Shown here in pieces: positions 551 through 60,212 of a stretch of 64,000 bases of DNA (position 1 is its first letter; each line of letters starts with the position of its first letter). The DNA lies in assembly GCA_963702095.1 (NCBI GenBank), contig OY969706.1:1792001-1856000 (forward strand). Direction: 5' to 3'. The notes beneath the pieces are model-generated. The model did no database searches. It had not been told where the DNA came from and saw only the letters and a list, made by a program, of their open reading frames with translations. This DNA comes from Candidatus Bathyarchaeota archaeon (GTDB taxonomy: Archaea; Thermoproteota; Bathyarchaeia; Bathyarchaeales; Bathycorpusculaceae). A program made the position numbers and the translations under genes.

Positions 551-685
551 GTTTTTTCTAGTGTTAGAAGAAGAGAGTGTCGCCCTTACTCATCATCTTC
601 CAGTGGGTTTGGCTGTGGCGCCTGTTTTGGCATCTGCGTCTGGTTTGGGTTGCAGGCTGGTTGAGGCGGAGTCCACAAGCAGACC
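551..685 (+). repeat. Dispersed intergenic repeat family B, copy 1 (G/T-rich strand is +)
   Basis: 579-670 is the exact reverse complement of 19516-19607 (92 bp); also aligns with 25141-25275 and 60070-60212. Confidence 0.95.
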
Positions 686-736
686 ACACAAAACTGCCGT
701 TGATCTATTTTAAAGCCCCCATAACACAACCCACAC

Positions 737-1596
737 TTAACACAATACCCATTCAGCCCAAAGCCTATCAAAATAGCCGCGGCAAACTGCAACCAAACCC
801 GTGTGCTTACTCCACAAATCAGGCCCTGTGGTCAAACGAGCAGCCCATCAAAAGTCATAGCCACCTGTGCGCCGTCAAAAACGGCGATGACAGCTGCAGG
901 CGCATTAGGCATCGTCCGCAGCTCAAAAACCGCGCTATCAAGCGCATTTACCCATTTGGAGACGGAATATCGAGACGGTTTCTCAACAACCACACGCACC
1001 CGCACACCCCGCTTAAGAGCAGCCTTCAGCTCACCCTCAAAATGAAAACACAACTGCCTAAACCGCACCCAACTACAAACCAACTCAACACAACCCTGCG
1101 CCGCCTCCAACGCGGCGGCATATTTTTTGCCCCCTTCCCCCTCGCAGACTGCGCCAAAGCAGGGCAGAAGCGACTCCATCACCGATGGGGCTGGCGGGTT
1201 TTGGCTGAATTTCTCCGTAACATGCTTTGCCTTATGAGAAATCACCATTAACTCGCTAGCTCTAACCGCAAACAACGTCTTTACAGCCTCAGGAAACGGC
1301 ACCGCAACATAACTAACAGGAACCGTCAAATTCTTTTGCACCAGCCCCAACTGCTGCAACTCCAAAAGCAAACGATATGCCTCCTGACGAGCTACGCCTG
1401 CTGCGTTTGCAACAGGTCGCGCCCTAGCATCGTCCGCTTTAAGCAGTGCCAGATAGACACGCGCTTGCCGCTCTGAAAGACCCAGACCAATCAAAACCCC
1501 AACCCCCTCCAAACCAGCACGATTAAACGTTTGAGACAGCTTTCGCGGTTTAACTACGTTTGATTGCAATCTATTTTCACCTATAACAATACTCAA
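737..1596 (-). CDS. TrmB-family transcriptional regulator with a frameshift near 844
   Basis: N-terminal wHTH LGLSERQARVYLALL...YRLLLELQQLGLV. The track ORF stops at 832, but the adjacent frame continues ...GPDLWSKHTGLVAVCRGYFDRLW to TAA at 737. Confidence 0.8.
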
Positions 1597-1691
1597 TTAT
1601 TTGAGCATATATAATTTTTCTATCTTTAGCACAAAATAACGAGCATTTATGTTATCTGTGGGTTTAGCTCATAATCAACCAAGGGTTAGAT

Positions 1692-1955
1692 TTGAAGATT
1701 TCACAGATAGTCCAAATACCCAGCGTACGCATAATGCTATGCCTATACGAAAATGGCGACCTAAGACACGCACAACTATCCAAACTAACAACCAGCAGAG
1801 GAACCCTGAGCCTAAGCTTAAGAGAACTCGAACAAGAAGGCTTAATCCAAAGACAACTATTAGACACAAAACCTCTACAAAGCATATACAGCCTAACCGA
1901 AAAAGGAAAAACAATCGCCAAACAACTAAAAGAAATACAACAACTCATCACATAG
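1692..1955 (+). CDS. HxlR/MarR-type winged-helix regulator
   Basis: TLSLSLRELEQEGLIQR...YSLTEKGKTIA; divergent from the TrmB gene. Confidence 0.85.
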   Translation: MKISQIVQIPSVRIMLCLYENGDLRHAQLSKLTTSRGTLSLSLRELEQEGLIQRQLLDTKPLQSIYSLTEKGKTIAKQLKEIQQLIT

Positions 1956-2358
1956 GCTTCATGGGGCGGATGTAGTTGTGGCAGATTTGGTAGCCTTAAA
2001 GAATAGCTGTGTATTTTGGTTATGTTGCGAGTTGTTCTTTCTATACAAGTGCTTTTTTGTGTGGGATTTAGGTTTGGTTGTTCAGTGGGTTTTTTATTGT
2101 TAGGTTGGTGTATTTGTTGGGTTACCTTGACCAAAGACATAACTGATTGTGTGTAAGCGGTTATTGTTCTGTTTTATCCCAGATTGACTTCGTTTTTTCA
2201 GGAGACAGTTTTCGGGTTTGCCTGTTCGTTTGTGCTTAGACTTGATTTATCCTTCGCAGTTCTTCAGTTGGGTCACCTTTTTTGTGAGACGCCATACTTC
2301 TCATAGATTTAAGGAAATGTTTGTATTTAAAATTAGTAAAAAAGAAGAAAAAAGAGGT

Positions 2359-4569
2359 TTAGTTGATGATTCTTGTGTTGTATTGTTGCAGGTAGGCTTG
2401 GTATGCTGGGTCGTTGGGGTAGTGTTCGTCGGTGGTGTAGGGGAAGCCGCTCATCGCTTGGAAAGGCATCGGGTCAACGGTGAAGGTGAAGCCGTATCCC
2501 CATTCTCCCGGCGGGTCCTTGAACCAAGAGGCGACGACGAAGAAGTAGTCGCGTACCATGCCGGGTGCGGGTTCGGTGAGGTTTGCGGCTGGGAACAGCA
2601 GGTTAACTTGGTCGCCTTGTCTCCCTACAACGAACATGTCGTCAGCGTCTTGTAGTAGCGGCAGTACGTCTCCGTAGCGTGTGAATGCGCCTGTGGACTG
2701 TGAGGTTGTGTCCCAGAGTTGACTAAGGACTGCGGAGGATGGGCTGATTATTTGTGTGGTTATGTTTGCTTGGTTGGAAGTGTCGATGCCGATGTAGTCG
2801 TAGGTTACGTTCCAGTAGTTGTTGAATCTGATTTGGTAGTCAGTTACGTCTGGCGGGAAGATGCCTGTTATGTTGACCGTGTAGGTTCTAGCTCTGTAGT
2901 CTGATGGTAGGGGTATGTCTTGGTTAACACGTATCCAAGTGCCGTTGGCGGCTTTAACTTCTAAGTAGGGCGCTGGCGAAATCTCAGTGTTACTGGTGAT
3001 CAGGCCTTGGGCTGCAGCGTCTTTGAAGCTGTCAATCCAGTTATAATACGAATCAGCGGGACCCCAGTCAACGATGCCACGGATGACCAACTTTACTTCG
3101 GATGCCCCGGTCAAATTGCCAAGGTCCAGCGTTAACTGGTTTAAGGTAATATTATTCCATATGCTGTCATAACCGTTAACGCCGGGCGTGAACACACCAT
3201 CTATGCTGCTTAGCTGCGGCAAGACGTTTTCGCCTTTCTCGTTGGTAGCGCTGATTGGCGAGGTGGTAGTTTGGTTGGTAACTGTGTAAACTTTGCCGGT
3301 GGAGCCGTCGCTTAGGTAACTGGTCAGTGACATATAGGCGTCGGTGCCAACAGGATGGTCGACGCATAGCAGAGAGGCTTGGTCTAGGTAGAAGAGTTCG
3401 TTCCACTGCTGCGTAAGGGTGAAGCCGTAGTAACCGTCTTTAGTTTTAAGTAAGCTATTGTCTAACTTGACGTAGTCGAAGGGGTTGCCGTCTTTAAACA
3501 CGATGGTTCCAGCAGGGTCTATGTAGCCGATGTAGCCCAGCCAACCCGAATTGGAAACCTCAGTGACATATTGGTAACCGGTGCCGTTCCAAAAGTACAG
3601 CGACGGACAGCATGCATAGCCGCTGATGAGGGTGTAGGTGGCAACCAAAATCGTGCGTTTATCCACGGTAAAGGTATGGGTCGCGCTTGTTGAGCCATCA
3701 CTCCAATACGAGAACGCCAAGACCCCAGTGCCCACGTCAAAGGGGTTAGGGACCGTCACGGAGTATTCCCCCACGGGCACAAGAGCCATGTAGGTGGTTT
3801 CATGGTTTTCGCCATTGAGCGTAAACGGCAAAGCCTTCGAGCCGCCGCCTGATCTGCCGATTGTAAGGGTGTGGTAACCTTCTTTCACGACGGTATAGGT
3901 GCCGCTTAAGGTGTTTAGTTTAACGTTATGTTTGCCCTCGTTTGACGCGGTGAGGTTAAACACTACTTGTTGGCTGGCACCTGCTTCTAACTCTATCATC
4001 TGTGAATCCACAATGTCGCCGTCATCTGTGACAGTGATCATTAACCGGTCAGTTTCTCCGGAAGGATTGAGTGCATCAGCTGTCACCCTAACGGTTTGGT
4101 TAGGCCAAACCTCATATGGGTCGGATTTATAGTTTGAAAGCACGATTTTACTGGATTCCGGTGGAGCAGGCTTAAGGAGGAAGGACCCCTCTAAATCGCC
4201 GATTTTGACGCTGTAGTTGCCGTCTTTCAATTTAAGAACTGTAAAGTCAATGATCTGGGAATCCCTCAAACCCGCTAAAGTAATGTTCTGCGAATCCTCA
4301 ATAGCCCCGTTAATTTCCAAATTCACCGTAGTATTGCCTTCAACATCCCCTTGGTTGGTCACGTTGACAGTGATGTCGATGCTTTGCCCCACAAAAGCTT
4401 CAAGGGGGCTCACCGTCAAATCCGAATAGGTGAAGGTTGCGGGTTTCGCAGCGCCAGTGATTACGCCCTGACTTTGCAGGTAAAAGTAAACTCCTACCGC
4501 TGCACCAACAATCAATAAATCGATAATCAAAATTGCTTTTAGTTTTACTACAGCAGACCGAGACAGCAT
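2359..4569 (-). CDS. Membrane-anchored extracellular protein with CARDB/Ig-like domains
   Basis: N-terminal TM helix; two CARDB-like repeats (VNVTNQGDVEG, DALNPSGETD); C-terminal domain starting CCPSLYFWNG. Confidence 0.75.
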   Translation of the reverse strand: MLSRSAVVKLKAILIIDLLIVGAAVGVYFYLQSQGVITGAAKPATFTYSDLTVSPLEAFVGQSIDITVNVTNQGDVEGNTTVNLEINGAIEDSQNITLAGLRDSQIIDFTVLKLKDGNYSVKIGDLEGSFLLKPAPPESSKIVLSNYKSDPYEVWPNQTVRVTADALNPSGETDRLMITVTDDGDIVDSQMIELEAGASQQVVFNLTASNEGKHNVKLNTLSGTYTVVKEGYHTLTIGRSGGGSKALPFTLNGENHETTYMALVPVGEYSVTVPNPFDVGTGVLAFSYWSDGSTSATHTFTVDKRTILVATYTLISGYACCPSLYFWNGTGYQYVTEVSNSGWLGYIGYIDPAGTIVFKDGNPFDYVKLDNSLLKTKDGYYGFTLTQQWNELFYLDQASLLCVDHPVGTDAYMSLTSYLSDGSTGKVYTVTNQTTTSPISATNEKGENVLPQLSSIDGVFTPGVNGYDSIWNNITLNQLTLDLGNLTGASEVKLVIRGIVDWGPADSYYNWIDSFKDAAAQGLITSNTEISPAPYLEVKAANGTWIRVNQDIPLPSDYRARTYTVNITGIFPPDVTDYQIRFNNYWNVTYDYIGIDTSNQANITTQIISPSSAVLSQLWDTTSQSTGAFTRYGDVLPLLQDADDMFVVGRQGDQVNLLFPAANLTEPAPGMVRDYFFVVASWFKDPPGEWGYGFTFTVDPMPFQAMSGFPYTTDEHYPNDPAYQAYLQQYNTRIIN

Positions 4570-4759
4570 CCTTTCAACTCACTCAATTACAGTTTATACA
4601 ATGCGAGGTGTACATTAAAACTTTATTGAATACAACATGCAGCGATGTGTGTATTTGGAATTGCAATCCGCATGACTTTTTAATCGATCTCTTAAGGGCT
4701 AAGTGAGCAAAGAAACGGGGAAAGCGGCAAAGTTGGGTGGATCCAGCCAGCCATTATAC

Positions 4760-6224
4760 CTACGTGTACTCAACTCGCCGTAGCTTATTCTTCGCCACCA
4801 CCGCAAACCCCTTGTACAAACCCTTCAGTAGCGAACTGTACCATTTATTTGAAAGAGATGAATCGATCAAGTCATTAACCCATCTGAAGTCGTGTTCAGC
4901 GCATTTAACAAAAAGCTGTTTATGCAGTGGACTTAGTTTTACTTCAGAAAACCAATCTTCTCTGCCCAACTTTCCCAGCGGCACAAAAAACAATGGCACA
5001 ATAAGGCTGCGATAATTTTTTAGATCATCAATTAACTCCATGGTTTTGAGGACGTCAGATTCTTGCTCATCAGGCAACCCAACAATCAACGTACATGCAG
5101 GAACAAGCCGATTGTCATGCATTAAACCCATACCGGCGAAAACCACTTCTCTCCACTGGTTTGGTTTAAACGGATGCGCCTTGGCAGGCATCAGTTTCTC
5201 CACTATCCTCGACGACCCGGTTTCCACTCCTATTTCCGCACCCCAGAAAAGTTGCTTTTGCAGAATAATCTCTGATAACTCTGAGAAAAGTTTTGGATTT
5301 GACGCAACAGCCGCGATTGAACAGTGGCTCCACGCCATGTCTGTGCACTTTTTTGTTACATAATTATGTAGTTCAAGCAGTCTTTCAGAGTTGGGGTATG
5401 TGTTGTTTGACCCGTATAGCATAACATCTTCTGCATGCAGACATGCACCTGTTTCACCTGCAGTCATGTTAACGTTGATTTCACGGTCTATTTTTTCGAT
5501 AGGGTACCATCTTAGTGGTCTTAGGGTTACATTGCAGAATTGGCAGCCTCTACAGCAACCTCTGCCGATTTCAGTTAAACCATTAATTGAACCCCCAACA
5601 ATGTCGGGGATCTCTTCTAAGTGAGGCGTTTCGGCAGCCGCAGCCTCATAATGCGTAGGCAAGTTTTGTCCCCTTAACGCTGCCTCAACAAGTTTACCGA
5701 TGGCTTTTTCCGCTTCACCTTCTACAATGCAATCAACGCCTAAATCTGCCCTGGCTCTCTCGGTAACGGAACTGCCATGCCCCCGGTCCACCAACAACAA
5801 CTTTCAAACCACTTCTTTTCGCCTTTTTAATAGCTGGGTTATTTAGTAAGGACCGGAAATGTTGTGCAAGAAACGGTTCTTTTCGGAAAAAGGAAGCAAA
5901 AGTTGTGGATGCTGGACCTAAACCAAAAGGGTCCATGGCATGTATTCCCAGCACTTTTGCGTCATGTAGAAAACTGCTCAGATAATCTGGGCTCACTACC
6001 TTAACGGTGAAGCCTTCTTTTAGTAACTGGGCTTCTATTTTTCGTAGCCCATAGGGTGCGACAGATAATTCGCCTTTACAGGATTTAAGGGGTGGAAAGA
6101 AAAGGTAGCTGTAGAGCCAGCCCGGGATAATGTTTGGGGGAGCACAAGCGCCAAACCCGGCGAATTCGTTGTTATGGTAATTGCTCATCACGGTTCTGTC
6201 GGCAGTTAAAATTACGTCAACCAT
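4760..6224 (-). CDS. B12-binding-domain radical SAM protein, split by a frameshift near 5757
   Basis: ORF 5733-6224 has APYGLRKIEA and VVVGGPGAWQ; ORF 4760-5800 has EIGRGCCRGCQFC (CxxxCxxC); the junction lies in a GAGAGAG run. Confidence 0.85.
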
Positions 6225-10610: not shown

Positions 10611-10628
10611 AGTGAAACATAAACAAAC

Positions 10629-10808
10629 CAACATACTTCCACACCCACATAGCGGCTGGTTCTGCATGGAGCCATGTTGCGCGTGTGGAGAAAAATGCAC
10701 TTTCCACACCGAAACAGGCATAGAAAAACGTTGCAACCGCAAAAAGCAATTGAGTTCTCAACCATTCTTGTGGCATGCCGTAAACCGCCACCCCACATAA
10801 AGAGAGAA
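10629..10808 (-). repeat. Dispersed intergenic repeat family A, copy 1 (G/T-rich strand is -)
   Basis: Aligns with 23632-23806, 44117-44297, 56058-56238 and 61131-61310; shared CACACCGAAACAG core and CACATAAAGAGA end. Confidence 0.95.
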
Positions 10809-10878
10809 CACCAACAAAACATTTGACCTACAGCTAAATAATGGATGGGCGATGCTAAGAGAGCAGCAAACGCTTCTT

Positions 10879-13311
10879 TTACTTGCGTTTTAACATGTTC
10901 TCAAGCAACGGCTTTAGCTTAGCATTCTCCGCCTGTATCTTTTCTTTGCCCAAGGCTTTGCGCTCTACGTCGATTTCTTTTATGACTTCAGCGTAGTGGA
11001 TACCTTCTGCGGCAGAGATATATTCAACTCGGAAACGCTCTGGACTCATACCCAGCTTAACCAGCATATTCTTCAGCGCATCGGTGCGGGCTTTCATCTT
11101 GTAGTTGCCGTTGATGTAGTGGCAGTCGTAGGGCAAGTGGCATGCACCAACCAAAACCGAACCCGCCCCTAAACGCAGCGCTTCAAGCACGAAGTCTCTG
11201 GCGACCCGTCCGCTGCACATGACGCGGATTGCTCGGACGCTGGCAGGGTAGTCACATCGGCTGATACCTGCCAAATCTGCGCCGGCGTAGCTACACCAGT
11301 TACAGAGTATGGCGAGGATTTTGTCTTCCGGGTTAGTTTCTAAGGCAGCGTGGATTTGAGCCATGACTTGTGCATCGGTGAAGTGCATCTGGGTAATGGC
11401 GTGTTGTGGACATTCGGCGACGCATGTGCCGCAACCGTGGCAGCTGGCGGTGATGATGCTGGCGGGTTGCCCTGGTTCTTGGCGGATAGCACCGTAGGGG
11501 CATTTGTCAACGCAGATGCCGCATTTCTTGCATTTCTCTGAGTCCACAACGCTAATGATGGGTTCGATTTTCCATTTCGGTTTACTGATAACTGTGGCTG
11601 CACGTGAAGCAGCTCCGCTGCCCTGAGAGACACTGTAAGGAATGTCTTTGAGTCCTGCACAAGCGCCCGCATAGAAGACGCCGTCGGTTGGGGCGTCCAT
11701 GGGTTTGAGTTTGGGGTGGGCTTCCATGAAGAAGCCGTTGGAGTCACGGCTGAGGTTGAGGATGCGGGCGACTTCTTCGCTGCCTTTTTTGGGGATGGAT
11801 GCTGTGGCGAGGACGACCATGTCGGCTTCGACTTCGATGGGTTGCCCAAGCAAGCTGTCTTCGCTGTGCACAGTTAAGTTATGGGTCTTGGGATCTTCGT
11901 CTATGCGGCTTACACGTCCACGGATAAAGTTGACGCCCCTCTCCCTTGCACGGTCATAGAATTCCTCATAGCCTTTGCCAGGGCTGCGTATGTCCATGTA
12001 GAAAACGTAGACTTCCACGTCTTCTTTGTACTTCTCTTTAAGCTGCACCACGTGTTTGAGGGTGTACATGCAGCAGAAGTTGCTGCAGTAGGGGTAATGC
12101 TGCTTGTCTCGGCTGCCGACGCATTGGATGAATACGATGCGGTGGGGTTTCTGCCCGTCACTTTGCCGTATGACTTTGCCTCCGGTGGGTCCCGCCGCCA
12201 GAATCAGCCGTTCAAACTCCATGCTGGTGATGACGTTGGGGTATTTGCCGTAACCCAAAAGTGGCATGTCATAGGGCTCATAAACGTCGAAGCCTGTGGA
12301 AACGATGATGGCGCCGACTTCAATGTCTACTTCCTCGGGTTTTTGGTCGAAGTCTATGGCGTCGCGGTCTCCGCAGGCATCAGTACATTTGAAACATTCG
12401 ATGCAGTAGTCCTTGTTGATGCTGTAAATCAATGGAACCGTCTGGTCGAAGGGTACAGAAATTGCTTTCCGAGTGCCCAAGTTCATATCCCATTCGTTTG
12501 GGTACTCGATGGGGCAAGCGTCTTTGCATTCGCCGCACCCCGTACATTTTTCTGGGTTGACAAAGCGGGGGTTTTTGCGGATTTTAACTTTAAAGTTGCC
12601 AATGTAGCCCTCGCATTTGACGAGGTCGCTGTTGGCGAATATGGTGATGTTTGAGTGGCGGGCGCAATCCACCATTTTGGGGCCCTCGATGCAGATGCTG
12701 CAGTCCAGTGTGGGGAAGGTTTTGTCCAGCGCCGCCATGTGGCCGCCGATGCTCTGCGAAGTCTCAAGCATGTAAACTTTGAAGCCTTGCTCAGCTAAGT
12801 CGAGGGCGGCGTTCATGCCTGCTATGCCCCCGCCGATTATGAGTGCCTTGTTGGTGACTGGCACCTCTATGGTTTGCAGCGGCTGCATGAGGCGTACTTT
12901 GGCGACTGCCATCTTTACGGTGTCTTTGGCACGTTCCGTCGCTGCAACTGGGTCGCTTTGGTGGCACCAAGAGGCGAATTCACGGATGTTTGCCATTTCG
13001 TAGAGGAAGGGGTTTAAGCCTGCTTCGGAGACTGTGCGGCGAAAAGTGGGTTCGTGCATGCGTGGAGAGCAAGCGGCGATGACTACGCGGTTGAGTTTTT
13101 TTTGGCGGATTGCTTTGCGGATTTCTTCTTGACCCGGGTCGGCGCAGGTGTAGCGGTTTTCTTTGACGTAGACGACGTCAGGTATGGTTTTGGCGTATTC
13201 CGCAACTGCATGTACATCTACAGTTCCGGCGATGTTGAGTCCACAGTGGCATACAAAGACGCCAACACGGAGTTCTTCAGGTTTAGTTTGATTTGGATTG
13301 GGAGTGCTCAT
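10879..13311 (-). CDS. hdrA: Heterodisulfide reductase subunit A fused to an MvhD-like C-terminal domain
   Basis: GVFVCHCGLNIAG, ACSPRMHE, FAD motif GGGIAG, QCVGSRD, CSNFCCMY, ferredoxin motifs; C-terminal CNWCSYAGAD...RVMCSGRV...CHYINGN is MvhD-like. Confidence 0.95.
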   Translation of the reverse strand: MSTPNPNQTKPEELRVGVFVCHCGLNIAGTVDVHAVAEYAKTIPDVVYVKENRYTCADPGQEEIRKAIRQKKLNRVVIAACSPRMHEPTFRRTVSEAGLNPFLYEMANIREFASWCHQSDPVAATERAKDTVKMAVAKVRLMQPLQTIEVPVTNKALIIGGGIAGMNAALDLAEQGFKVYMLETSQSIGGHMAALDKTFPTLDCSICIEGPKMVDCARHSNITIFANSDLVKCEGYIGNFKVKIRKNPRFVNPEKCTGCGECKDACPIEYPNEWDMNLGTRKAISVPFDQTVPLIYSINKDYCIECFKCTDACGDRDAIDFDQKPEEVDIEVGAIIVSTGFDVYEPYDMPLLGYGKYPNVITSMEFERLILAAGPTGGKVIRQSDGQKPHRIVFIQCVGSRDKQHYPYCSNFCCMYTLKHVVQLKEKYKEDVEVYVFYMDIRSPGKGYEEFYDRARERGVNFIRGRVSRIDEDPKTHNLTVHSEDSLLGQPIEVEADMVVLATASIPKKGSEEVARILNLSRDSNGFFMEAHPKLKPMDAPTDGVFYAGACAGLKDIPYSVSQGSGAASRAATVISKPKWKIEPIISVVDSEKCKKCGICVDKCPYGAIRQEPGQPASIITASCHGCGTCVAECPQHAITQMHFTDAQVMAQIHAALETNPEDKILAILCNWCSYAGADLAGISRCDYPASVRAIRVMCSGRVARDFVLEALRLGAGSVLVGACHLPYDCHYINGNYKMKARTDALKNMLVKLGMSPERFRVEYISAAEGIHYAEVIKEIDVERKALGKEKIQAENAKLKPLLENMLKRK

Positions 13312-18683: not shown

Positions 18684-18761
18684 TGGTGGACGAGGCGGGA
18701 TTTGAACCCGCGGCCTCTGCAATGCCAATGCAGCGTTCATACCAAGCTGGACTACTCGCCC
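18684..18761 (-). tRNA. tRNA-Ala(GGC), CCA encoded, no intron
   Basis: GGGCGAG/CTCGTCC acceptor stem with G3:U70; anticodon arm CTGCA-TTGGCAT-TGCAG; T arm GCGGG-TTCAAAT-CCCGC; ends ACCA. Confidence 0.97.
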
Positions 18762-19502: not shown

Positions 19503-19632
19503 GTTGCTTGCGGAATCCGCCTCAACCAGCCTGCAACCCAAACCAGACGCAGATGCCAAAACAGGCGCCACAGCCAAACCCACTGGAAGATGATGAGTAA
19601 GGGCGACTCCCTCTTCTTCTTAAACTATAAAA
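19503..19632 (-). repeat. Family B repeat, copy 2 (G/T-rich strand is -)
   Basis: 92 bp identical (reverse complement) to 579-670. Confidence 0.95.
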
Positions 19633-24020: not shown

Positions 24021-25073
24021 TTAAGCCAAGAATTTTTTGAATTCCGCTTCCACAGTTTCCATTGGCAACATTTTAGGCGGATGCTTAAATCCATAAGCGC
24101 AAACCGCTTCGACTGCGCCCTTCTGCTTCCTTGACAGCGCCAACTTAACAGCTCGGACCACGTCGAGGAGGACGCTGCCCGCGTTGGGGGCATCGATGGT
24201 TTGGAATTTAAGGTCGATTTTAAGCGGTGTATTGCAGAAGTAGACGCCGCTTATGAAAAAGTAGCTATCCCGTTTGTTCTGCAGGAAATCCACATAGTCA
24301 GTGGAGCCTGCCACAACCTCGGTTTTGTATGGAAGCGCAGATGCGACGGATTGGGTTTTGATGTTGCGTTTGGTGTCGCGGGTGCGTTCCATGGTGTCGA
24401 CGGATTCTGTTCCTCCGCCCACGTCAAGCTGGTAGGTTTCGTTGATGTGGACGCCGCTGTCACTTAACAGTTTGAGAAGGGTTTTGTGGAGGGCGGTTGA
24501 GCCGACTTGGTCCACTAAGTCGTCGCCGACAACGGGTAAGTTTGCGTCTTCAAACTGCGCTGCCAATGAGGGTTCGCTTGCAACGAAGTTGGGTGTCGCG
24601 TTTATGAATGCGCAGTTAGCCGCTATGGCTTGTATAGCGTAGAATTGGGTGGCGTTGGTTGCGCCGCTTGGGAGCAGGTTAATGACGATTTCTGCGCCTG
24701 CTTTCATGAGGACTGCCGTGACGTTTGCGTCGGGTGCGGTGCTTAATTCAACGAGTGCTTTTGTTGATTCGCCGATACCGTCGAAGAGTGGACCTTTGGA
24801 GACTTTAACGCCCTGTTCTGGTACATCGGAGACTTTGGGGGCGTTGTTGGGTTTGGCGAAGATGGCTTCGGAGAGGTCGTAGCCGACTTTGCGTGCGTCA
24901 ACGTCGAATGCAGCCACTACCTCGATATTTAGAGGAGTCAAACCCGCCAGTAGGGGGTTGCGTAGTCCAAGGGTGTCTTGGGGGTTGGTTGTTTTGCTGT
25001 AGTATTGGATGCCTTGGATGAATGATGAGGCGCAGTTGCCTACGCCGATTAATGCTACTTTGACTTTGGGCAT
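24021..25073 (-). CDS. ino1: myo-inositol-1-phosphate synthase
   Basis: KVALIGVGNCASS, VAAFDVDARKVG, VGDD, TYQLDVGG, DAPNAGSV. Confidence 0.9.
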   Translation of the reverse strand: MPKVKVALIGVGNCASSFIQGIQYYSKTTNPQDTLGLRNPLLAGLTPLNIEVVAAFDVDARKVGYDLSEAIFAKPNNAPKVSDVPEQGVKVSKGPLFDGIGESTKALVELSTAPDANVTAVLMKAGAEIVINLLPSGATNATQFYAIQAIAANCAFINATPNFVASEPSLAAQFEDANLPVVGDDLVDQVGSTALHKTLLKLLSDSGVHINETYQLDVGGGTESVDTMERTRDTKRNIKTQSVASALPYKTEVVAGSTDYVDFLQNKRDSYFFISGVYFCNTPLKIDLKFQTIDAPNAGSVLLDVVRAVKLALSRKQKGAVEAVCAYGFKHPPKMLPMETVEAEFKKFLA

Positions 25074-25140: not shown

Positions 25141-25275
25141 CTTGTTTTTAGTATTAGAAGAAGGCAGAGACCGCCTTACTCATCATCTTCTCGGGGGCTT
25201 AGTGGACAGCTTCTTTTTTGGTTCCGCGTCAGGTTTGGATTGACAGCTGGTTGTGGCGAATTCCGCAAGCAGATG
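25141..25275 (+). repeat. Family B repeat, copy 3 (diverged)
   Basis: TTAGAAGAAG...CCTTACTCATCATCTTC...GCGTCAGGTTTGG...GCTGGTTGTGGCGAATTCCGCAAGCAGA aligns with copy 1. Confidence 0.9.
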
Positions 25276-25389: not shown

Positions 25390-26349
25390 ATGGGAAACAT
25401 TACCGTCGCCGTTTTAGGCGCATTGGACTACAGTAGCGGCATAGGCAAAAAAGGCACCTCTACAGACATCACACTTTTTGACCTCAAAAAAGGCGAAACC
25501 ACCATTACAATGATTGAGCCCACACGTTACCCTGAACGGTTGGCACCCCTGTTCTATGCATGCGCATTAGCCACCAAAGCACTGGTCGTAGTAGACGAGT
25601 TATCCGCGACCTTGGGCGAGCAATTGGTTATGCTGCAATGCAGCGGCATCCAAAGCGGCTACTTCGTACTCCGCAACTACATCCCCAAAGAAAAAATCGC
25701 ACCCCTAATCAAAGGCACACCACTCGAAAACTTTGAGTTCCTCCCAGACGACCCTAACTTGATACGGGAGAAGCTGCTGGCTGAGGCTGCACAGGTTAAA
25801 CCAGTCGGTGACGCACAAGTGGGAACGGTGCCGGTGGACCATGCTTTCAACGTTAAAGGCGTCGGCGTCGTCATATTGGGCATAGTCGTCTACGGTTCAG
25901 TCCAGAAACACGCTATCCTCAAAGTGCTTCCCGGCTCCAAAACTGCTCAGGTGCGCTCCATACAGAAGCATGACGACGAATTCGAAGACGCCTCTATTGG
26001 CGACCGCGTCGGATTCGCTCTTAAAAACGTTGAAGTTGAAGACCTGGACCGCGGCGCAGTCTTAACCAATGACCCAGCCGTCAAAACAGAAAACAAACTC
26101 CAAACCACCGCTGAGCTGGTCAAGTACTGGCAGACCCCCATCAAAGCAGGCATGGTGATGCATGTTGGCCACTGGGCTCAGTTCGTAACCGCCAAGGTGG
26201 AAGCGGCGTCTGAGGGCGGCGACTTAAGAAAACCCACTTTGACGCTGGCGTTGGATAAGCCGTTGGTTTACCGTGCAGGCGACAGAGCGATTTTGATGTA
26301 TCTTGAGGGTACCAAGCTGCGGGTGGCTGGAACACTTGAGCTACCCTAA
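25390..26349 (+). CDS. Archaeal SelB-like protein (aSelBL) with a degenerate G domain
   Basis: GKKGTSTDIT N-terminus with no GxxxxGKT; EF-Tu/SelB domain II signature VDHAFNVKGVGVVILG...VRSIQKHD...GDRVGFALK. Confidence 0.88.
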   Translation: MGNITVAVLGALDYSSGIGKKGTSTDITLFDLKKGETTITMIEPTRYPERLAPLFYACALATKALVVVDELSATLGEQLVMLQCSGIQSGYFVLRNYIPKEKIAPLIKGTPLENFEFLPDDPNLIREKLLAEAAQVKPVGDAQVGTVPVDHAFNVKGVGVVILGIVVYGSVQKHAILKVLPGSKTAQVRSIQKHDDEFEDASIGDRVGFALKNVEVEDLDRGAVLTNDPAVKTENKLQTTAELVKYWQTPIKAGMVMHVGHWAQFVTAKVEAASEGGDLRKPTLTLALDKPLVYRAGDRAILMYLEGTKLRVAGTLELP

Positions 26350-43571: not shown

Positions 43572-43932
43572 GTTAATCCATCAGCTTGATGCCTTCTTCT
43601 GCACATACGTTTTGCTTGATAAAAGGCAAAGTCAGCCCACCCCCCGTATTTTTAAGGAAAAATAAACATTTACCCTTCTTATTTTTACCCAAAACCGCCT
43701 TTTCCCTTCACAATTTGTTGCATCAACCTGTAACCAACAACGCTTTATATCACTAAATCGGGTTAGCTGTTGTATGGAATGCAAGGGATAGCCAACAAAG
43801 TTAGGCGGGTTAGCTGCTGCGAAAGGAGAAGGCTTGCCCACCTGCTACTTTTAAGCATCTGCTTTTGTAGCACAGGGCTTGGTCCGCTTAACTCAACCTT
43901 TTTCCCCTCCCTTAATACAGTAGACAAAACGA

Positions 43933-44050
43933 TCTGCTTGCGGTTTGCTCCACAACCAACAAACAACCCGCATCCGTTGCAGAACGCAAAACACAGCCAC
44001 CTACACAACCCCTAAGAAGATGAGTAGGGAGCGCTTTGCCGCCGAATGGA
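43933..44050 (-). repeat. Family B repeat, copy 4 (diverged), adjacent to a family A copy
   Basis: TCTGCTTGCGG...CCACAACCA...CAACCC...GCAGA...GAAGATGAGTAGGGAGCG aligns with 19503-19610. Confidence 0.75.
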
Positions 44051-44116
44051 CTATGCTAGTGCCCGCCTGTATTGCGCTGACCGTTGCCGTTCACTGCTAC
44101 CCTAAGAAAACAAACT

Positions 44117-44297
44117 ATACATGCTTTCGCACACATCCCGACCGTCCCTGCATGGAACCATGTATGGCGTGTGGAGAAAAATCCCTATCCCACACCGAAA
44201 CAGACGCAGAAAACCAATGCAATCCCAAAAAACAATCGCATTCAATTGCAGTCTTGTAACACCCCATAAAACACCACACCACATAAAGAGAAAAAAA
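44117..44297 (-). repeat. Family A repeat, copy 3
   Basis: 44183-44295 is identical to 56126-56238 (113 bp). Confidence 0.97.
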
Positions 44298-49241: not shown

Positions 49242-49246
49242 CTTCG

Positions 49247-53214: not shown

Positions 53215-53246
53215 ACCAATGTTTACTCGCTTGTGAATCCCCCAGT

Positions 53247-54229: not shown

Positions 54230-54233
54230 TTAG

Positions 54234-54800
54234 CTATCGAATGGTTTGAGGTGGCACTATTATCGGTTCATTTAATTGGCTTTCTATAATATCCGTATCG
54301 AACGGGGTAGGGTCTGCTTTCTCACAAATAAATTTTATATCAATGGATAGGCCGGTTACACTGTAACTTTCTAAAATGTTTTTGATGTCAGATATTGTTT
54401 CACCCACTCTATCTGCTTCGCATAAAGCAATTGCAACAACATTATGTTCTCCGAATGACCTAAAAACATACTTTACTCTGCTGTATTCCTTGAGCTTTTC
54501 TACAAGTTCATCTTGGAATTTCTGCCCAACATTTAGGGCAATACCGATGTTTTTTAGATGGAGCTTCTGATAGTTTATCGTTCCACGAGTTATGCCTATT
54601 ATTACTCCGCTTTCTTCTAATAACTTGAATCTACGGTATATTGTGTTTCGTGAAGTATTGCATTCTCTGGCGAGTTCTTGATAAGATGTTATTCCCTGAC
54701 TAAGCCGATTGAGTATCTGCTTATCGAGTTGGTCCAAATTGACCATGGATTTAAATCGTCGATGATTGTATATAAAATCTTCCTGATTCATATTCGACAA
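54234..54800 (-). CDS. Lrp/AsnC family regulator
   Basis: LDQLDKQILNRL...SYQELA...YRRFKLLEESGVI; GEHNVV. Confidence 0.85.
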   Translation of the reverse strand: MSNMNQEDFIYNHRRFKSMVNLDQLDKQILNRLSQGITSYQELARECNTSRNTIYRRFKLLEESGVIIGITRGTINYQKLHLKNIGIALNVGQKFQDELVEKLKEYSRVKYVFRSFGEHNVVAIALCEADRVGETISDIKNILESYSVTGLSIDIKFICEKADPTPFDTDIIESQLNEPIIVPPQTIR

Positions 54801-55228
54801 CTTTTCGAGATCTGCTTATCATATATTAAGATTCATGTTGATCTACGCAACAAGTTTAACTAATTCTGACTCATCATTCCATTTTTAACACAATCTTAAC
54901 CTAAACGGGGATAATATTTAAAAAAAAAGTGGTTCCTTGCAAAGGGGCGGGCAAGTGCATAAGCATAGTCGTGTCCGCTTGCGAAGTGTCTTACTCTATA
55001 CCCTCTATTGTGGGGGTGAAAAGCGATTTTTTCACCAGTTTTGGAGGTCTCTTGAGTTTTCTTTAGCGTCTTTGCTCATTAGACGATTCATAGAAACATA
55101 ATGGATTTTAGGCAAACAGCTAACAACGAAAAGCTTGGCACAGTGCATTGACGATAGATTTTAGATGCACTTATTGGCCCGCAACTCGACAACTAAGTCA
55201 TAAACGATTAGAAAATAGCTGATTATTG

Positions 55229-55354
55229 TTATTTCTCAGATTTAACTTTTAAGAGAGCCTTCGGTTTTGGAATTTGCATTCCCCAGCTTTTCTCGAGTGC
55301 ATGTTTGCATTGTTCTGCAAAGTTATTTTCGTCGTAACTCCTTTCTGTTATCAA
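55229..55354 (-). CDS. Putative 41-aa microprotein
   Basis: AGGTGA ribosome-binding site, then TTG start; MITERSYDENNFAEQCKHALEKSWGMQIPKPKALLKVKSEK*. Confidence 0.4.
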   Translation of the reverse strand: MITERSYDENNFAEQCKHALEKSWGMQIPKPKALLKVKSEK

Positions 55355-55379
55355 TTCAATCACCTAAAGCATAGTATTT

Positions 55380-55475
55380 TTATTTGGCTAAGATCAGATA
55401 GCCTACATAGCCCATGACACAAAAGACTATACCTGTACCAATCAATCCCAATACTGCTTTAGCTGTATCACACAT
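55380..55475 (-). CDS. Putative 31-aa single-TM microprotein
   Basis: AGGTGA 8 nt upstream; MCDTAKAVLGLIGTGIVFCVMGYVGYLILAK*. Confidence 0.55.
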   Translation of the reverse strand: MCDTAKAVLGLIGTGIVFCVMGYVGYLILAK

Positions 55476-56057
55476 TTTCCATTTCACCTTTATCTGTAGC
55501 AAACCAAGACCTTGAAAGATGATATAAGCAAAGTTTCTGAAAAAACAACATATCAATCCAACAGAATATATCGAAAAGGGAAGCTGAACACGTTTTCAGC
55601 GGAATATACTTGTACAGAGTAGAAATAACAGAAGGGACGCTGAAAATGATGTTACAGCTAATTCTGCCTTAATTGAATCGGTTAGACGCATAGTTTTTGC
55701 CTCTCTTGCAAAAATGGCTTTTTAAGAATATAAGTAACGTTTCAACTCCAAGATTATGTCAATTTAAAAATGTTTCAAGTATTTCGCATACAACCTATGG
55801 GCTATAGGTTTGCCCTTAAGCGAGGGATGCATGCTACACGGGCTTTTTTGTTGGGTATCAAGGGGTGTGTTTGATGGTATGCCGCAATCAGCCGCAACCT
55901 GTTGGGTCCCTTATGACGAAAAGCTGTTTGTTTTTAAAAAAAGTACGGATTGATTATTAATCATGGAAAACCGGGGCCATAATCTGCTCCTTGAAAAAAA
56001 TTCCTGTTAGGAGGACTGTATTGCGGGGATATTAGAGGCACAACTGCAGAGGTAACC

Positions 56058-56238
56058 CAACATGCTTCCACATGCACACTATGTCGGTTTCAACATAGAG
56101 GCATGTATGGCATGTGGAGAAAAACCCCTATCCCACACCGAAACAGACGCAGAAAACCAATGCAATCCCAAAAAACAATCGCATTCAATTGCAGTCTTGT
56201 AACACCCCATAAAACACCACACCACATAAAGAGAAAAA
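56058..56238 (-). repeat. Family A repeat, copy 4
   Basis: 113 bp identical to copy 3. Confidence 0.97.
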
Positions 56239-56288
56239 GCTGGACAAATAGGCATTAAAAAAAGAAAAAAAAGAGAAAGCGGCTGATT

Positions 56289-56960
56289 TTAAACGGAGGT
56301 TGGTGGCGGTGCAGGTGAATATGCGGTTGCTGGTGGCTGGGTTGCGGTTGGCTCAGTGGGTTTAAGCTGGAAGAAAGCGATTGCTAAAAGCAGGAAACCT
56401 ATCCAGATCAGGAGATACCCGATCGCGATGACTGCTAAGAATCCGCCGATGAGTATAAGTAATCCAGCGGTTCCGAATAGGCCAGTAGTTGATTTGTTAG
56501 CGACTGTTACTAGAGAGCGCCGTAGGAAGAAAGTTGAAATTATAGCTATAATCCATGCTCCTACCCAGAGAGTTGCGAGGGCACCAATGATTGGTAACCA
56601 ATCAGAGATGTTCACGTTGTTGAAAGCGTTGGGGTCAGGGGTCATTCCTTGTAGAGTGCTCCAGTTGCCATCCCAACCTGGATATATTTGATGAAGTATT
56701 GTGGAAGCATTTGCAAAAAGAACAGTAAATGCCAAGACCGCTACGATGATTGTGCCCACAATTAAAACAATAACTGCGATGAGTGCATTGTTAAGAATTC
56801 CGCGTTCCCTAAGATAGCCGCTTAAGCCGTATAAGCCTACTAAAACAAGAATTGCGCCGACGAGGTCTATAATGCCGAAGTAGTTGATTACGGGGAAGAC
56901 TCCTATGAAAAGCAAGATTGCGCCTATGCCACCCAATGTTTTACTTGATTCAAGATTCAT
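56289..56960 (-). CDS. DUF996 membrane protein
   Basis: KTLGGIGAIL, LVGLYGLS, LFGTAGL..LIG..L. Confidence 0.88.
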   Translation of the reverse strand: MNLESSKTLGGIGAILLFIGVFPVINYFGIIDLVGAILVLVGLYGLSGYLRERGILNNALIAVIVLIVGTIIVAVLAFTVLFANASTILHQIYPGWDGNWSTLQGMTPDPNAFNNVNISDWLPIIGALATLWVGAWIIAIISTFFLRRSLVTVANKSTTGLFGTAGLLILIGGFLAVIAIGYLLIWIGFLLLAIAFFQLKPTEPTATQPPATAYSPAPPPTSV

Positions 56961-57064
56961 TTGTTTTCCTCTAATTTTTGGAAGAAGAACTAAGAATAAA
57001 AGCTTTTTCTTAGCTTATGAGCGCTTGGGGCAAAATCAACATAACACCAACCAAAAAACCCAAA

Positions 57065-57397
57065 TTAGGAGGTTTCGGCTTCGCCGCTTTCAAGTTGACC
57101 CTGGAGGATACGGTAGTAGGTTTGCAGATAGGTTTTGCCATCGGCAGTTATCGTGTACACTTTGCGGGCGCGTCCGTCTTTTTGCTGTTTCTTGCTCTCC
57201 ACAAACCCCTTCTCCTCAAGCATATTTAGGGTAGGGTAGAGGGCGCCGTGGCGCAGTTTGATGTTGAAGTCGGTTTCAACCTGCTTTTTTATCTTGTAAC
57301 CCCATGTGGGTTGAGCTTGGATGATGCGGAGCAATTGGATATCGAGTAGATTTCTGACTATGTGTTGTACAATTTCTTTTTTGTAGTTTTCAGACAT
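57065..57397 (-). CDS. PadR-family regulator
   Basis: PTWGYKI...GALYPTL..LEEKGFV...RARKVYTIT..G. Confidence 0.92.
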   Translation of the reverse strand: MSENYKKEIVQHIVRNLLDIQLLRIIQAQPTWGYKIKKQVETDFNIKLRHGALYPTLNMLEEKGFVESKKQQKDGRARKVYTITADGKTYLQTYYRILQGQLESGEAETS

Positions 57398-57558
57398 GCA
57401 TTGTTACCTTGAGGGGGTTGTTAATGTATGGTTTGATGTTTGGATTTATTTAGCTTTATGTTAACTCTTGAGGTTGGTGGTATGCCGAATTATGTTTTGG
57501 TATGCTTGGGTTATGTATCAAGCTTTATATTCGCGTGTATTGTTACTCTGTAATTAAG

Positions 57559-57609
57559 ATATGTCCGAAGAAGGACATATTGTATACAAGTCGAACAGAA
57601 GAACTGTTC
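57559..57609. promoter_or_regulatory. Three adjacent inverted repeats between divergent padR genes
   Basis: ATATGTCC-GAAGAA-GGACATAT; TTGTATACAA; GAACAG-AAGAA-CTGTTC. Confidence 0.6.
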
Positions 57610-57637
57610 AACAAAAATACAAACGGGGAAGAAAAAA

Positions 57638-58042
57638 ATGTTCAAACCAAGCTCACAAAAAGAGGTCTCAACCAAACTCATGAAAGGACTACTCGACATG
57701 ATTATCCTACAATTCCTCAGCAGCGAACCCATGCACGGATATCAAATCATCACCAAAATCCGTAAAAACTTCGGCGTATACTTCGGACCAAGCACCATCT
57801 ACCCGCTCCTTGGTACACTAGAAAAGAAAGGCTTTGTCGCCAGCACATGGAACATGAACTTCGAGCGCCCAAGAAAAGTTTACAGTCTAACCAAAGACGG
57901 CCAAAGCATGCTTAACTTCACTGGAGAATCACTCAACCTTATTTGCCGAAAAATCACCATCGTAAACCCGGAATCAACCTCACCGACCGTAGGCATCATA
58001 ACATCAAAAAACAGAAACGACCTAACCCTCATCGTACCCTAA
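57638..58042 (+). CDS. PadR-family regulator
   Basis: KGLLDMIIL..L..EPMHGYQII...STIYPLL..LEKKG...RPRKVYSLT. Confidence 0.92.
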   Translation: MFKPSSQKEVSTKLMKGLLDMIILQFLSSEPMHGYQIITKIRKNFGVYFGPSTIYPLLGTLEKKGFVASTWNMNFERPRKVYSLTKDGQSMLNFTGESLNLICRKITIVNPESTSPTVGIITSKNRNDLTLIVP

Positions 58043-58218
58043 AGCGGCAAGCCTTTTTTTGAAGCTTGTCAATTTTCTGATTCATAAGGAGCATCAATCT
58101 TACAAGATCTATGCAAGCTCTAAACGGCACCTTCTATATTTTTAGGCATTTATCAGCGTTTTAAAAATCAGTTCTTAAATATGGCACTCATCATCTTTAT
58201 TGGCACTAGGTTGAAGCA

Positions 58219-59934
58219 TTGAAACAGCAAAACAGCGGCGATAATCGCGATTTAACGGAGCAAATTCTCGATTTTTCTACACATATCGCTGGGCAAGCCA
58301 AAATAGCGGCGGTTGCCTTGGTTGACAGTTATGCTGTTAAACCCTCAGATGAGCGGGCAATCCACGCCGTCATGGTTATTATCCATGATTTTCAACCCAG
58401 ACTGATGAGTTACCTAAAACGCGTAAGAAACAAAACCTTGTTCGTTTTCGCCGTTGACCAATGGGTTTTTGAGCGGGACGTTGACCGGGGATTGCTGGGT
58501 GATGCCATCGCGAGCAAACTCGTTTTTCCCTACATTGCGCTCAAAGGTGACGCTTATTTGCGTGAGGAAGAAGTTGCGTTAAAGAAGCGTCTGGTTTCTG
58601 AGTTACTTGAGAACTTAGTTATAAACTTCCCAGAGTTGGCGTCAAGCATTCAAATTCTGCCACAATACTTCATGTACGAGGTATTCTCTAACCGCGTCCG
58701 AGTTTTTCCGTTGTTGGCTTATGATTTGATCGAGTTAAACGGCAGTTTGGCGCAGAAAGAAAGCCAATCCCTTGCCAGCTACAAAATCGCTCTCCAGCAG
58801 CTTGAAGCCGAAGAAAAAGTGAGAATGAAAGACGAATATGTTGTCGTCACCAAGAAGTTTATAGCAAAGTGCCAAAATCCTAGACTGCGATTCATCAACC
58901 TCTCGAAAAATGCGCCCAGAACCCTTTTTACCTCGCTTTTTGGTGTCATCCCTCAACTGATGAACATTGTCTCCCAAAACGCGGAGGAGTTTTTGCGGAC
59001 TCAGAAAATAAATTGGGTTACGTTCCCAAATCATGCGGTTAACTTTATTGACCCGCAGAAGTACGTATTTTTCCCAACTTCGGAAGGGCTGGTTTCACTG
59101 TCGGACAAAATAGACATCAAAGGGTACACGCAGAGGATGCTGCTTAAAGGAGAAAACGTCGACGTGGATGTTGAACCCATCGGCGGTGTATTAAACGACG
59201 TGTACTTAATCAACGCTTACGGAGCTAACAGCGATACGAAGGTTTTGGTTAAACGCTTTAAAGATTGGTCTGGGTTTAAGTGGTTTCCCCTTACGCTTTG
59301 GTCGTTTGGGGCACGTTCCTTTGCAGTTGCGGGGCAGGCACGGCTGGCTAAGGAGATTGCGGCAAGCGAGTTTCTACGAAGCCAAGGATTCAATGTGCCA
59401 AAGATTTTGCATGTGAGTAACGCGGAACGCATAGTTTTCATGGAGTACATCGAAGGAGAAGGCTTAAACCAAGCTATCAAACGTTATTCGACCGCTTTGA
59501 ACGGAGAAGTTGCTTCTGGCGTCTTGGGAGCGGTTGAAGGATTCGGGGAAATCCTAGCGCGTGTCCACGGGTACAATGTCGCTCTGGGAGACACAAAACC
59601 TGATAATGTGCTCGTAAAACCTGATGGCACCCTCTACCTTATCGATTTTGAGCAGGCACTTCGGGGCGGCGACAAAGCATGGGACATAGCGGTTTTCCTC
59701 TATTACTGTGGACATTACCTGCAACCGTTTGAAAGCACCGTCAAAGCCGAATCCATCGCTGTTGCATTCATTGAGGGGTACCTGAGGGCAGGAGGAACCT
59801 TGGAGAACATTCACAAGGCTGCTTTGCCCAAGTACACGCGGGTGTTTAGCATTTTTACTATGCCTCCAGTTATGAGTGCAATTTCTAACGCATGCCGAAA
59901 AGCAGAATTACCCTATGTAGACCCTAAGGTCTAG
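58219..59934 (+). CDS. Protein-kinase-like (RIO/Bud32/Kdo-type) domain fused to a degenerate nucleotidyltransferase-like N-terminus
   Basis: IGGVLNDVY, VLVKRF, FMEYIEG, LGDTKPDN, LIDFEQ. Confidence 0.8.
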   Translation: MKQQNSGDNRDLTEQILDFSTHIAGQAKIAAVALVDSYAVKPSDERAIHAVMVIIHDFQPRLMSYLKRVRNKTLFVFAVDQWVFERDVDRGLLGDAIASKLVFPYIALKGDAYLREEEVALKKRLVSELLENLVINFPELASSIQILPQYFMYEVFSNRVRVFPLLAYDLIELNGSLAQKESQSLASYKIALQQLEAEEKVRMKDEYVVVTKKFIAKCQNPRLRFINLSKNAPRTLFTSLFGVIPQLMNIVSQNAEEFLRTQKINWVTFPNHAVNFIDPQKYVFFPTSEGLVSLSDKIDIKGYTQRMLLKGENVDVDVEPIGGVLNDVYLINAYGANSDTKVLVKRFKDWSGFKWFPLTLWSFGARSFAVAGQARLAKEIAASEFLRSQGFNVPKILHVSNAERIVFMEYIEGEGLNQAIKRYSTALNGEVASGVLGAVEGFGEILARVHGYNVALGDTKPDNVLVKPDGTLYLIDFEQALRGGDKAWDIAVFLYYCGHYLQPFESTVKAESIAVAFIEGYLRAGGTLENIHKAALPKYTRVFSIFTMPPVMSAISNACRKAELPYVDPKV

Positions 59935-60069
59935 TTTTTGCTGTTGATTTGTTGCTATTTGTTTGTGTTAGATTTTTTGCCTGCTTTTTTAGTAAGTTCA
60001 AGTACAACTTAATGCCTCTGCTTTTTCACAGTTCTGTTTTTATTTAGTTGTTGCCTAAGGCTCCGCGCC

Positions 60070-60212
60070 TTTTTTATTTTGTTTTTCTAGTGTTAGATGA
60101 AGGAGAAACGCTCCTTACTCTTCTTCTTCCTGTGGACTTTGTGAGCGATTGCGTTTTTGTGTCTGCGTCTGGGTTGGGTTGCAGGCTGGTTGTGAACAAA
60201 TCCTCAAGCAGA
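60070..60212 (+). repeat. Family B repeat, copy 5
   Basis: TTTTTCTAGTGTTAGA...CCTTACTC...TCTGCGTCTGGGTTGGGTTGCAGGCTGGTTG...CAAGCAGA; similarity to copy 1 extends back to TTCTGTTTTT near 60032. Confidence 0.93.

Follow-up and report, generated by a model that had tools for sequence, protein, structure and literature searches.

A dispersed intergenic repeat of Bathyarchaeia is very probably a miniature inverted-repeat transposable element moved by an ISH3-like transposase

What is the short repeat, here called Family B, that occurs five times in a 64,000-nt stretch of a Candidatus Bathyarchaeota archaeon genome (contig OY969706.1 of assembly GCA_963702095.1, positions 1,792,001-1,856,000; hereafter the window)? 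A preliminary description had read it as either a structured RNA or a non-autonomous mobile element. In this study we find that Family B is very probably a miniature inverted-repeat transposable element (MITE) that belongs to Bathyarchaeia and for which an ISH3-like insertion sequence (IS) supplied the DDE transposase in trans. The mobile-element option is supported by terminal inverted repeats (TIRs), by 4-bp duplications of the target site, by an IS in sister species that has identical termini, and by an exact pair of occupied and empty sites. Among the outcomes that would overturn its reading, the preliminary description had named identification as a fragment of a known transposon, and membership of a transposon family is in effect what was found.

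All five copies first noted in the window are real, with nhmmer E-values of 1e-22 to 5e-38 near the positions originally given, and no sixth copy appears in the window even at nhmmer E<=10. Iterated nhmmer on the home genome (G000, a single contig of 2,937,366 bp with 46.8% G+C) recovered 181 copies, many more than chance would give; 164 of them are near full length. Their cores share 62% mean pairwise identity and total 23,317 bp, or 0.79% of the 2.94-Mb genome. According to a crude map of open reading frames (ORFs), 162 of the 181 copies lie mostly outside ORFs, and gene ends are found at a median distance of about 100 nt. The occurrence in both divergent and tandem spacers holds genome-wide, with 45 divergent, 53 convergent and 83 tandem (48 + 35) settings among the 181. 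Neighbouring genes have no orientation bias relative to the element strand, and neither a conserved promoter nor similar flanks were found beyond the element, the flanks being unrelated between copies.

The unit of ~135 bp in which the repeat was first delimited is real but incomplete: it corresponds to the interior of the MITE only, and on either side about 20-35 bp more lead out to terminal inverted repeats. The full element measures ~175-200 bp; well-kept copies end in CAGTAGATCAAAA...TTTTGATCTACTG inverted repeats and are flanked by 4-bp duplications such as TTAA, TTAT and ATAA. When copies were anchored on CTAG and GCAGA, many could be extended to 5' ...TTAACAGTAGATCAAAATTTGGG... and 3' ...CCCTTTGATCTACTGTTAA..., and the left and right arms of the consensus, compared by eye, are similar for ~35-40 nt. 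A terminus weight matrix, seeded by 33 of the home-genome termini that it scored, reaches at least 10 bits in 42/181 5' flanks and 36/181 3' flanks, always facing inward, against 1-2/181 in the wrong orientation and 0/400 in random windows. Termini are present by this measure at either end in 61/181 copies and at both ends in 17; home copies with both termini are mostly 162-182 bp long (range 137-224). Clustering of termini over the whole genome yields the Family B 3' end (37 sites), the subfamily-A 5' end (32) and the subfamily-T 5' end (11), together with six ends of another short repeat of 250-330 bp and 194 chance-like singletons. No "empty palindrome", that is, a pair of termini less than 140 bp apart, was found in the home genome.

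The duplications could be evaluated in 18 copies with both termini. A 4-bp duplication directly outside CAG is exact in 5/18, against 1.6 in shuffled pairings (p=0.009), and the identity under this model is 0.67 against 0.54 after shuffling (p=0.002); the model is the best of 30 tried, and had been suggested beforehand by eye. Younger elements come from two further genomes of the genus, G050 and G103. Six out of six carry a perfect 13-bp CAGTAGATCAAAA at both ends, and in each the 4-bp flanks match, as TTAA in five cases and as the non-palindromic TTAT in the sixth; their length is 174-180 bp, except for a 276-bp one of another family, and the Family B core is present in two of them (E 1.9e-22 and 2.7e-12). 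With one mismatch at most allowed over 16 nt, the terminus is present in 27 of the 101 genomes searched in the genus and is frequent in G050 (26 sites), G103 (26) and G106 (12), where a control read backwards gave 0. Three unpaired G050 termini (L204, L205, L208) were considered as IS ends and discarded, as ordinary host genes follow them.

A C-rich motif, GGGAGGGG or (A)TAAGGGAGGGG when read outward and in some cases extended by AGGT..GGCAGAGCAACAG, is found just beyond the duplication. Of 88 home-genome termini, 27 have it within 25 nt on the outer side, as compared to 64/2000 random 25-mers, and it adjoins all six young elements as well as the three IS copies described below (L198-L203, L211, L214, L215). 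The motif octamer is not over-represented in the home genome, with 48 occurrences observed and 61 expected. The motif may reflect a preference for certain targets or belong to the edge of a further repeat. One such site stands in the window at about 43896-43917, outside the 3' terminus of the Family B copy located there, and the recurring outside flank (CTGTTGCTCTGCCG...) has no match in the window.

Which enzyme could recognize these termini? A search for the Pfam domain DDE_Tnp_1 in the terminus-carrying genomes revealed transposase genes that adjoin terminus sites. At three of three IS loci (L211, L214 and L215, of 1113, 1317 and 1127 bp), an exact inward-facing CAGTAGATCAAAA is present on both sides of a single ORF of 343-347 aa. 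The duplications at these loci are TTAT/TTAT, ATAA/ATAA and ATAA/ATAA, respectively; being non-palindromic, they cannot be a continuation of the inverted repeats and are genuine direct repeats. The ORF matches DDE_Tnp_1 above the cut-off, and its best NCBIfam match is ISH3 (NF033541), with E-values of 4e-51 to 2e-53 over positions 2-296 of 298. The scores of 173-181 bits remain below the equivalog cut-off of 225, and the enzyme is therefore a divergent ISH3-like transposase rather than a curated member of that family. Members of ISH3, an archaeal IS family, typically make a duplication of 4-5 bp. The partner IS resembles them by its length of 1.1-1.3 kb, its single DDE transposase, its short inverted repeats and its 4-bp duplications, and differs by the sub-threshold score; Family B carries the termini only. 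Relatives of the partner transposase are present in 11 of the 101 genomes, again beside the terminus in G047 and G104, and the IS survives in the species G103, G113, G047 and G104. Three broken copies with several in-frame stops are also found in G113 beside three intact ones (C20:263074-264087, C15:305391-306420 and C15:157815-158342), which shows that the partner IS is itself decaying in part of this genome.

Other candidates for the partner were set aside. The multicopy long repeats of the home genome are ordinary paralogs, for example a radical S-adenosylmethionine enzyme and helix-turn-helix regulators, and the 289-aa DDE_Tnp_1 genes of G005 and G076 have different termini (GGTGTGCAYAATT). 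The latter belong to an IS-like unit of ~1 kb (L183 on G005:C7 and L184 on G076:C18), whose GGTGTGCAYAATT ends are unrelated to those of Family B. Searches of the home genome and of 10 relatives for the IS630-type domain DDE_3 (PF13358) were negative, and DDE_Tnp_4 was matched in G106 only.

These data also bear on two other kinds of element, a hairpin-dependent one of the IS200/IS605 type, similar to palindrome-associated transposable elements (PATE) or repetitive extragenic palindromic (REP) sequences, and a MITE of the IS630/Tc1 type with a TA duplication. Family B does contain a subterminal hairpin, a TA-only duplication model fits 11/18 copies against 8.3 expected, and the termini begin with CAGT next to TA, presumably a resemblance to Tc1/IS630 ends. 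IS200/IS605 elements, however, have hairpin ends and are not known to possess TIRs or duplications, and IS630 is not known to duplicate more than TA. The clear TIRs and duplications of Family B led us to reject a PATE derived from IS200/IS605, and its 4-bp non-palindromic duplications (TTAT, ATAA), together with the failure to find PF13358 in the genomes searched (home and 10 relatives), to reject an IS630/Tc1-mariner-type MITE. Moreover, the IS with these very termini encodes an ISH3-like DDE_Tnp_1 enzyme. An origin of either kind appears extremely improbable.

Direct traces of movement were obtained from G007, the closest relative of the home genome, with ~82-88% nucleotide identity over syntenic stretches. 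Presence or absence at orthologous loci, a check proposed in the preliminary description, differs both ways between the two genomes. At the locus of the window copy c19503, G007 harbours a T-type copy with intact termini nested in an older A-type copy: G000 reads TAGTTTAAGAAG where G007 reads TAGTTTAG[CAGTAGATCAAA...TTTTATCTACTG]TTAAGATGG. The insertion is bounded exactly by the termini, and its TTAA target (TTTAA at the 5' hairpin of c19503) is unoccupied in G000. The G007 copy L032 is likewise missing from G000, where flanks that are 86-89% identical lie 19 nt apart. In the other direction, the window copy c60070 is absent from G007, in which the spacer between the same genes is ~36 nt according to the BLAST coordinates, versus ~332 nt in G000. 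Paralogous empty sites within the home genome gave one ambiguous case only.

Copies shared by the two genomes could be compared at two loci. The core of c25141 is 79% identical (106/135) to its G007 orthologue, compared to 93% and 88% for the flanking intergenic sequence, and that of c551 is 71% identical (99/139), compared to 86% (left) and 73% for the neighbouring intergenic DNA. At both loci measured, the orthologous cores are no better conserved than the intergenic DNA around them.

The distribution of Family B in the genus is patchy. A first draw of 24 other genomes from the genus contained it in 6, three of which had a single weak match, and it was found in 0 of 16 genomes from other genera of the order. 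An exact-pattern scan for the 3' block, with one genome per species, returned almost only records from Bathyarchaeia, Bathyarchaeota or an uncultured archaeon, several of them Bathy6. Among the 80 matches listed, 20 are scattered bacterial ones, when ~17 are expected by chance with 18 specified bases. Viral contigs gave one match to the search pattern, which is not an element.

MITEs are defined in PMC11602168 as elements of 50-800 bp with TIRs of at least 10-15 bp, duplications of 2-10 bp and no transposase. Judged by sequence, Family B qualifies in every feature that can be tested in silico: complete copies of 174-180 bp without an open frame, TIRs of 13 bp, a 4-bp duplication, multiple copies with insertion polymorphism, and an autonomous element with matching termini. 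Archaeal MITEs are listed in PMC10969869 for Sulfolobus, Halobacterium, Haloquadratum and Desulfurococcus. Like other prokaryotic MITEs, those of archaea included, Family B is small, has TIRs and a short duplication, lacks a transposase gene, is present in many intergenic copies, has exactly the termini of an autonomous IS that occurs in related genomes, and is lineage-specific in its distribution. It differs by its host, Bathyarchaeia, by an interior unrelated to the IS, and by a home genome in which most copies have eroded termini and the search for the transposase was negative. A literature search on Bathyarchaeota and MITE returned no relevant report by title or abstract, and "Bathyarchae" is not mentioned in the main text of PMC11602168, whose supplementary catalogues may hold entries.

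A complete copy consists of a 13-bp CAGTAGATCAAAA TIR at each end and a non-coding interior, which includes a triplet-repeat 5' hairpin and the conserved 3' block GGTTGCAGGCTGGTTG...CAAGCAGA. In the mechanism that we propose, the transposase would bind the 13-bp termini, make a 4-bp staggered cut in an AT-rich target (T-T-A-W) and insert the element, with these four bases duplicated around each copy. The ~181 home copies would be immobile relics which, to judge from the two loci compared, decay at about the neutral rate.

Several observations weigh against this reading. Searches of the home genome, which is 90% complete, for DDE_Tnp_1 and for the partner transposase were both negative. With the queries used, the partner transposase was not found in G007, G005, G014 and G050 either, of which G007 and G050 hold many copies or termini. 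From the first absence we take the home copies to be decayed relics; from the second, mobilisation in those genomes would be historical, or would require copies that are foreign or missing from the assemblies. Similarity between the short elements and the IS is limited to 13-17 bp and does not reach the interior; the putative link between IS and MITE is one of termini, duplication type and co-occurrence in the genus. As many as 120/181 home copies have no terminus of at least 10 bits at either end, and in the window the termini of four of the five copies are eroded at best. Decay of immobile relics at a neutral rate would account for most copies having lost recognisable termini: at a divergence of ~20-30%, about three changes are expected per 13-bp terminus, which makes it indistinguishable from background, while the 135-bp core is still detected. 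Indeed, with up to three mismatches allowed, the terminus has 23 matches in the window when 22.7 are expected. At the nested G007 site, the left duplicate reads TTAG and not TTAA, and the occupied/empty pair of L032 has no clear duplication. Finally, transposition by itself leaves unexplained the strong conservation of the interior blocks across subfamilies and species.

The interior is also where the structured-RNA option has to be judged, in particular the possibility that the copies are genes of a multicopy small-RNA (sRNA) family with a hairpin under selection. Only the 5' region folds more stably than shuffled sequences, with a mean z of -2.2; in 75% of 164 copies the value lies more than 1 standard deviation below the shuffle mean. 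With z values of -0.06 for the middle region and -0.9 for the 3' module, neither of these is more stable than shuffles, and the T-rich loop closed by GC stems that had been placed in mid-element is therefore unsupported. The 5' hairpin exists, as the preliminary description had claimed, but what covaries in it comes down mainly to a single A-U to U-A exchange that distinguishes two subfamilies. Over 111 distinct hairpin regions from several species, the helix derived from RNAfold has 71.4% paired cells against 65.2% after shuffling, a value reached by 0/500 shuffles. Since the hairpin arms consist of repeated triplets, however, 66.6% of cells still pair when the partner is slid by -3 columns. 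The double changes fall mainly in two pairs, by which the subfamilies can be told apart (72 AU versus 33 UA; 51 versus 28). The inner helix first described (AAGGAG/CTCCTT and similar) is not general: only 57% of its cells are paired, and at two of the six positions 78-79 of the 111 copies lack a pair. RNAalifold returns a consensus structure with no pairs, for the 111 hairpin regions as for the home-genome alignment. Two stems considered in the 3' module, GTTCTGC/GCAGAAC and TTGTGGA/TCCACAA, were dismissed for their many mismatches and lack of covariation, and the hybrid copy L201 has no outer stem. In Rfam, the window at the gathering threshold matched only a transfer RNA (tRNA), with no match for Family B, and nine loci holding the element matched, at E<=0.1, only 5S ribosomal RNA and a microRNA by chance.

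The hairpin is real and has been kept through a swap of stems between lineages, with few independent events and no overall RNA structure. Its stability, the retention of pairing by two subfamilies with different stems and the excess of paired cells over every shuffle are what an sRNA family would predict. Against this stand the missing consensus fold and the high score of the slid pairing, an inner helix paired in little more than half of the cells, 3' stems that are mismatched rather than covarying, the unexceptional folding of the remainder of the element, the copy without an outer stem, the lack of an Rfam family, of a conserved promoter and of a fixed orientation, and orthologous copies no better conserved than their flanks. 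The dispersal, moreover, is explained by the termini, the duplications and the partner IS. We consider an sRNA family very improbable, and the structured-RNA option is unsupported, given the absence of a consensus fold and of an Rfam match, covariation that reflects a subfamily swap, and orthologues showing no extra conservation. REP and other structured intergenic repeats, or sRNA gene families, are similar to Family B in being short, dispersed between genes and provided with a stable hairpin. Unlike them, Family B has inverted-repeat termini, duplications and a DDE partner, and it lacks a consensus RNA structure, an Rfam family and extra conservation of orthologues.

As for the primary sequence of the interior, the blocks TTAGAWGAAG, CCCTTACTCATC, GGTTGCAGGCTGGTTG and CAAGCAGA are indeed the best-conserved columns of the family alignment, whereas the block GCGTCWGGKTTGG, listed with them in the preliminary description, is only weakly conserved across the family. 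A protein-coding element, on either strand, had been suggested by reverse frames ending in EDDE* and was rejected over 142 anchored copies: several frames look open in the first copies, but no frame is open in more than 44/142, and the spacing of the two anchors varies between 73, 74 and 75 nt. Mutual information over all column pairs is dominated by a single signal, the separation of two subfamilies (106 and 55 among 164 copies) that are distinguished by many linked differences in their 5' parts. The hairpin arms are GAAGAAG/CTTCTTC in the larger one and GTTGTTGTTG/CAACAACAAC in the smaller one, and a third, hybrid form is present in other species. A G-interrupted T-run (TTTTTGTTTTTT) precedes the hairpin in the home lineage and is wholly missing from the G103 copies. 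The interior blocks are well kept across subfamilies and species, which fits constraint on active source elements.

An alternative source of this constraint would be recruitment by the host, the interior of the MITE serving as a terminator (T-run plus hairpin) or as a protein-binding site (3' block), with some copies functional. Oligo-T is an archaeal termination signal, and a T-run does precede the hairpin in the home lineage; the good conservation of the interior blocks and the short distance to gene ends, ~100 nt in the median, are also in line with such a role. On the other hand, the upstream gene reads into the T-run end in 88/181 cases and not in 93, with no preference of orientation, orthologous cores diverge as fast as or faster than their flanks at 2/2 loci, and the G103 copies dispense with the T-run altogether. 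Co-option of this kind is unlikely. A related proposal holds that GGTTGCAGGCTGGTTG...CAAGCAGA and the triplet-repeat hairpin are protein-binding or regulatory cargo, recruited by the host and spread between genes by the ISH3-like transposase. Termini erode, but these parts have persisted in at least three subfamilies and in several species. We nevertheless regard this proposal as distinctly unlikely; were it true, a MITE would have rewired many promoters or terminators in Bathy-6 archaea.

Within the window, four of the five copies belong to subfamily A. The first (c551, + strand, nhmmer E 2.3e-36) has its core at 552-686 and a probable full element at 505..711. Its decayed termini were read by eye and are weak: CGTAGAGGATTAAA at about 505 for the 5' end, and GTTGATCTAT, with 4 mismatches, ending at about 710 and followed by TTTAAAG, for the 3' end. 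Only the core is delimited in c19503 (19503..19632, - strand, E 5.8e-34), the termini of which are unrecognisable, in c25141 (25145..25275, + strand, E 1.5e-31) and in c60070 (60080..60213, + strand, E 1e-33). The spacer that holds c25141 is divergent, between an inositol-1-phosphate synthase-like gene (24021-25073, - strand) and a gene for an EF-Tu-domain-2 protein (25390-26349, + strand), both assigned by Pfam. The remaining copy, c43933, is truncated at its 5' end (model positions 24-136) and lies on the - strand, with the core at 43931-44040 and the whole at 43918..44040 (E 5.7e-21). Its 3' terminus at 43918-43930 (- strand) reads inward as CAGTAGACAAAAC with 3 mismatches, and outside it come TATT and then AAGGGAGGGG; the copy abuts another repeat at 44047-44296. 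The genes of the window are archaeal, including those for ribosomal protein P1, aEF-2, TrmB and an HdrA-MvhD fusion. The fusion is an 810-aa ORF at 10879-13311 (- strand), with HdrA-like flavin adenine dinucleotide and 4Fe-4S domains and a C-terminal MvhD/FlpD domain. The tRNA gene (18687-18761, - strand, 60.3 bits in Rfam) is ~740 bp from c19503.

The repeat next to c43933 is one of several copies of a second dispersed family of ~180-330 bp, probably the "Family A" of the preliminary description. In the window it is found at 10623-10817 (with a terminus-like site at 10821-10833), 44047-44296, 56044-56240 and 61126-61341, and elsewhere in the home genome at 808023, 1282500, 1724368, 2128436, 2631767 and 2692769. 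Many matches exist in G007, G005 and G076, and at least some copies end in a CAGTAGATCAAAA-type terminus. L203 of G103 is a complete copy of 276 bp with a TTAA duplication. This second repeat is likely another MITE family, sister to Family B and dependent on the same transposase. Three G050 elements of 177-180 bp (L198, L199 and L200) represent a third interior family. Their termini are perfect and their duplications TTAA, and with respect to the flank motif they occur either way round. G050 contains 26 terminus sites, and the transposase was not found in its contigs. Several of its contig starts (L189-L194) and ends (L206, L207) fall inside short elements. The starts were considered as possible IS edges, an idea abandoned as the end of C16 overlaps the start of C45 and the two join into a short element of ~420 bp. 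The short elements appear to break the G050 assembly.

Our analysis replaces a possible new structured RNA by a concrete and ordinary explanation. Bathyarchaeia are an abundant, uncultured group of archaea, and Family B with its partner is apparently the first worked IS/MITE system in this class, comprising an ISH3-like IS and at least three MITE families that share a 13-bp terminus. A load of ~180 copies per genome explains contig breaks in related assemblies. The copies should be masked when regulatory motifs or small RNAs are searched for in these genomes, and can be used as markers of strain and species history. Furthermore, genomes in which many MITE copies persist and no transposase was found offer a natural case for dating the decay of stranded elements.

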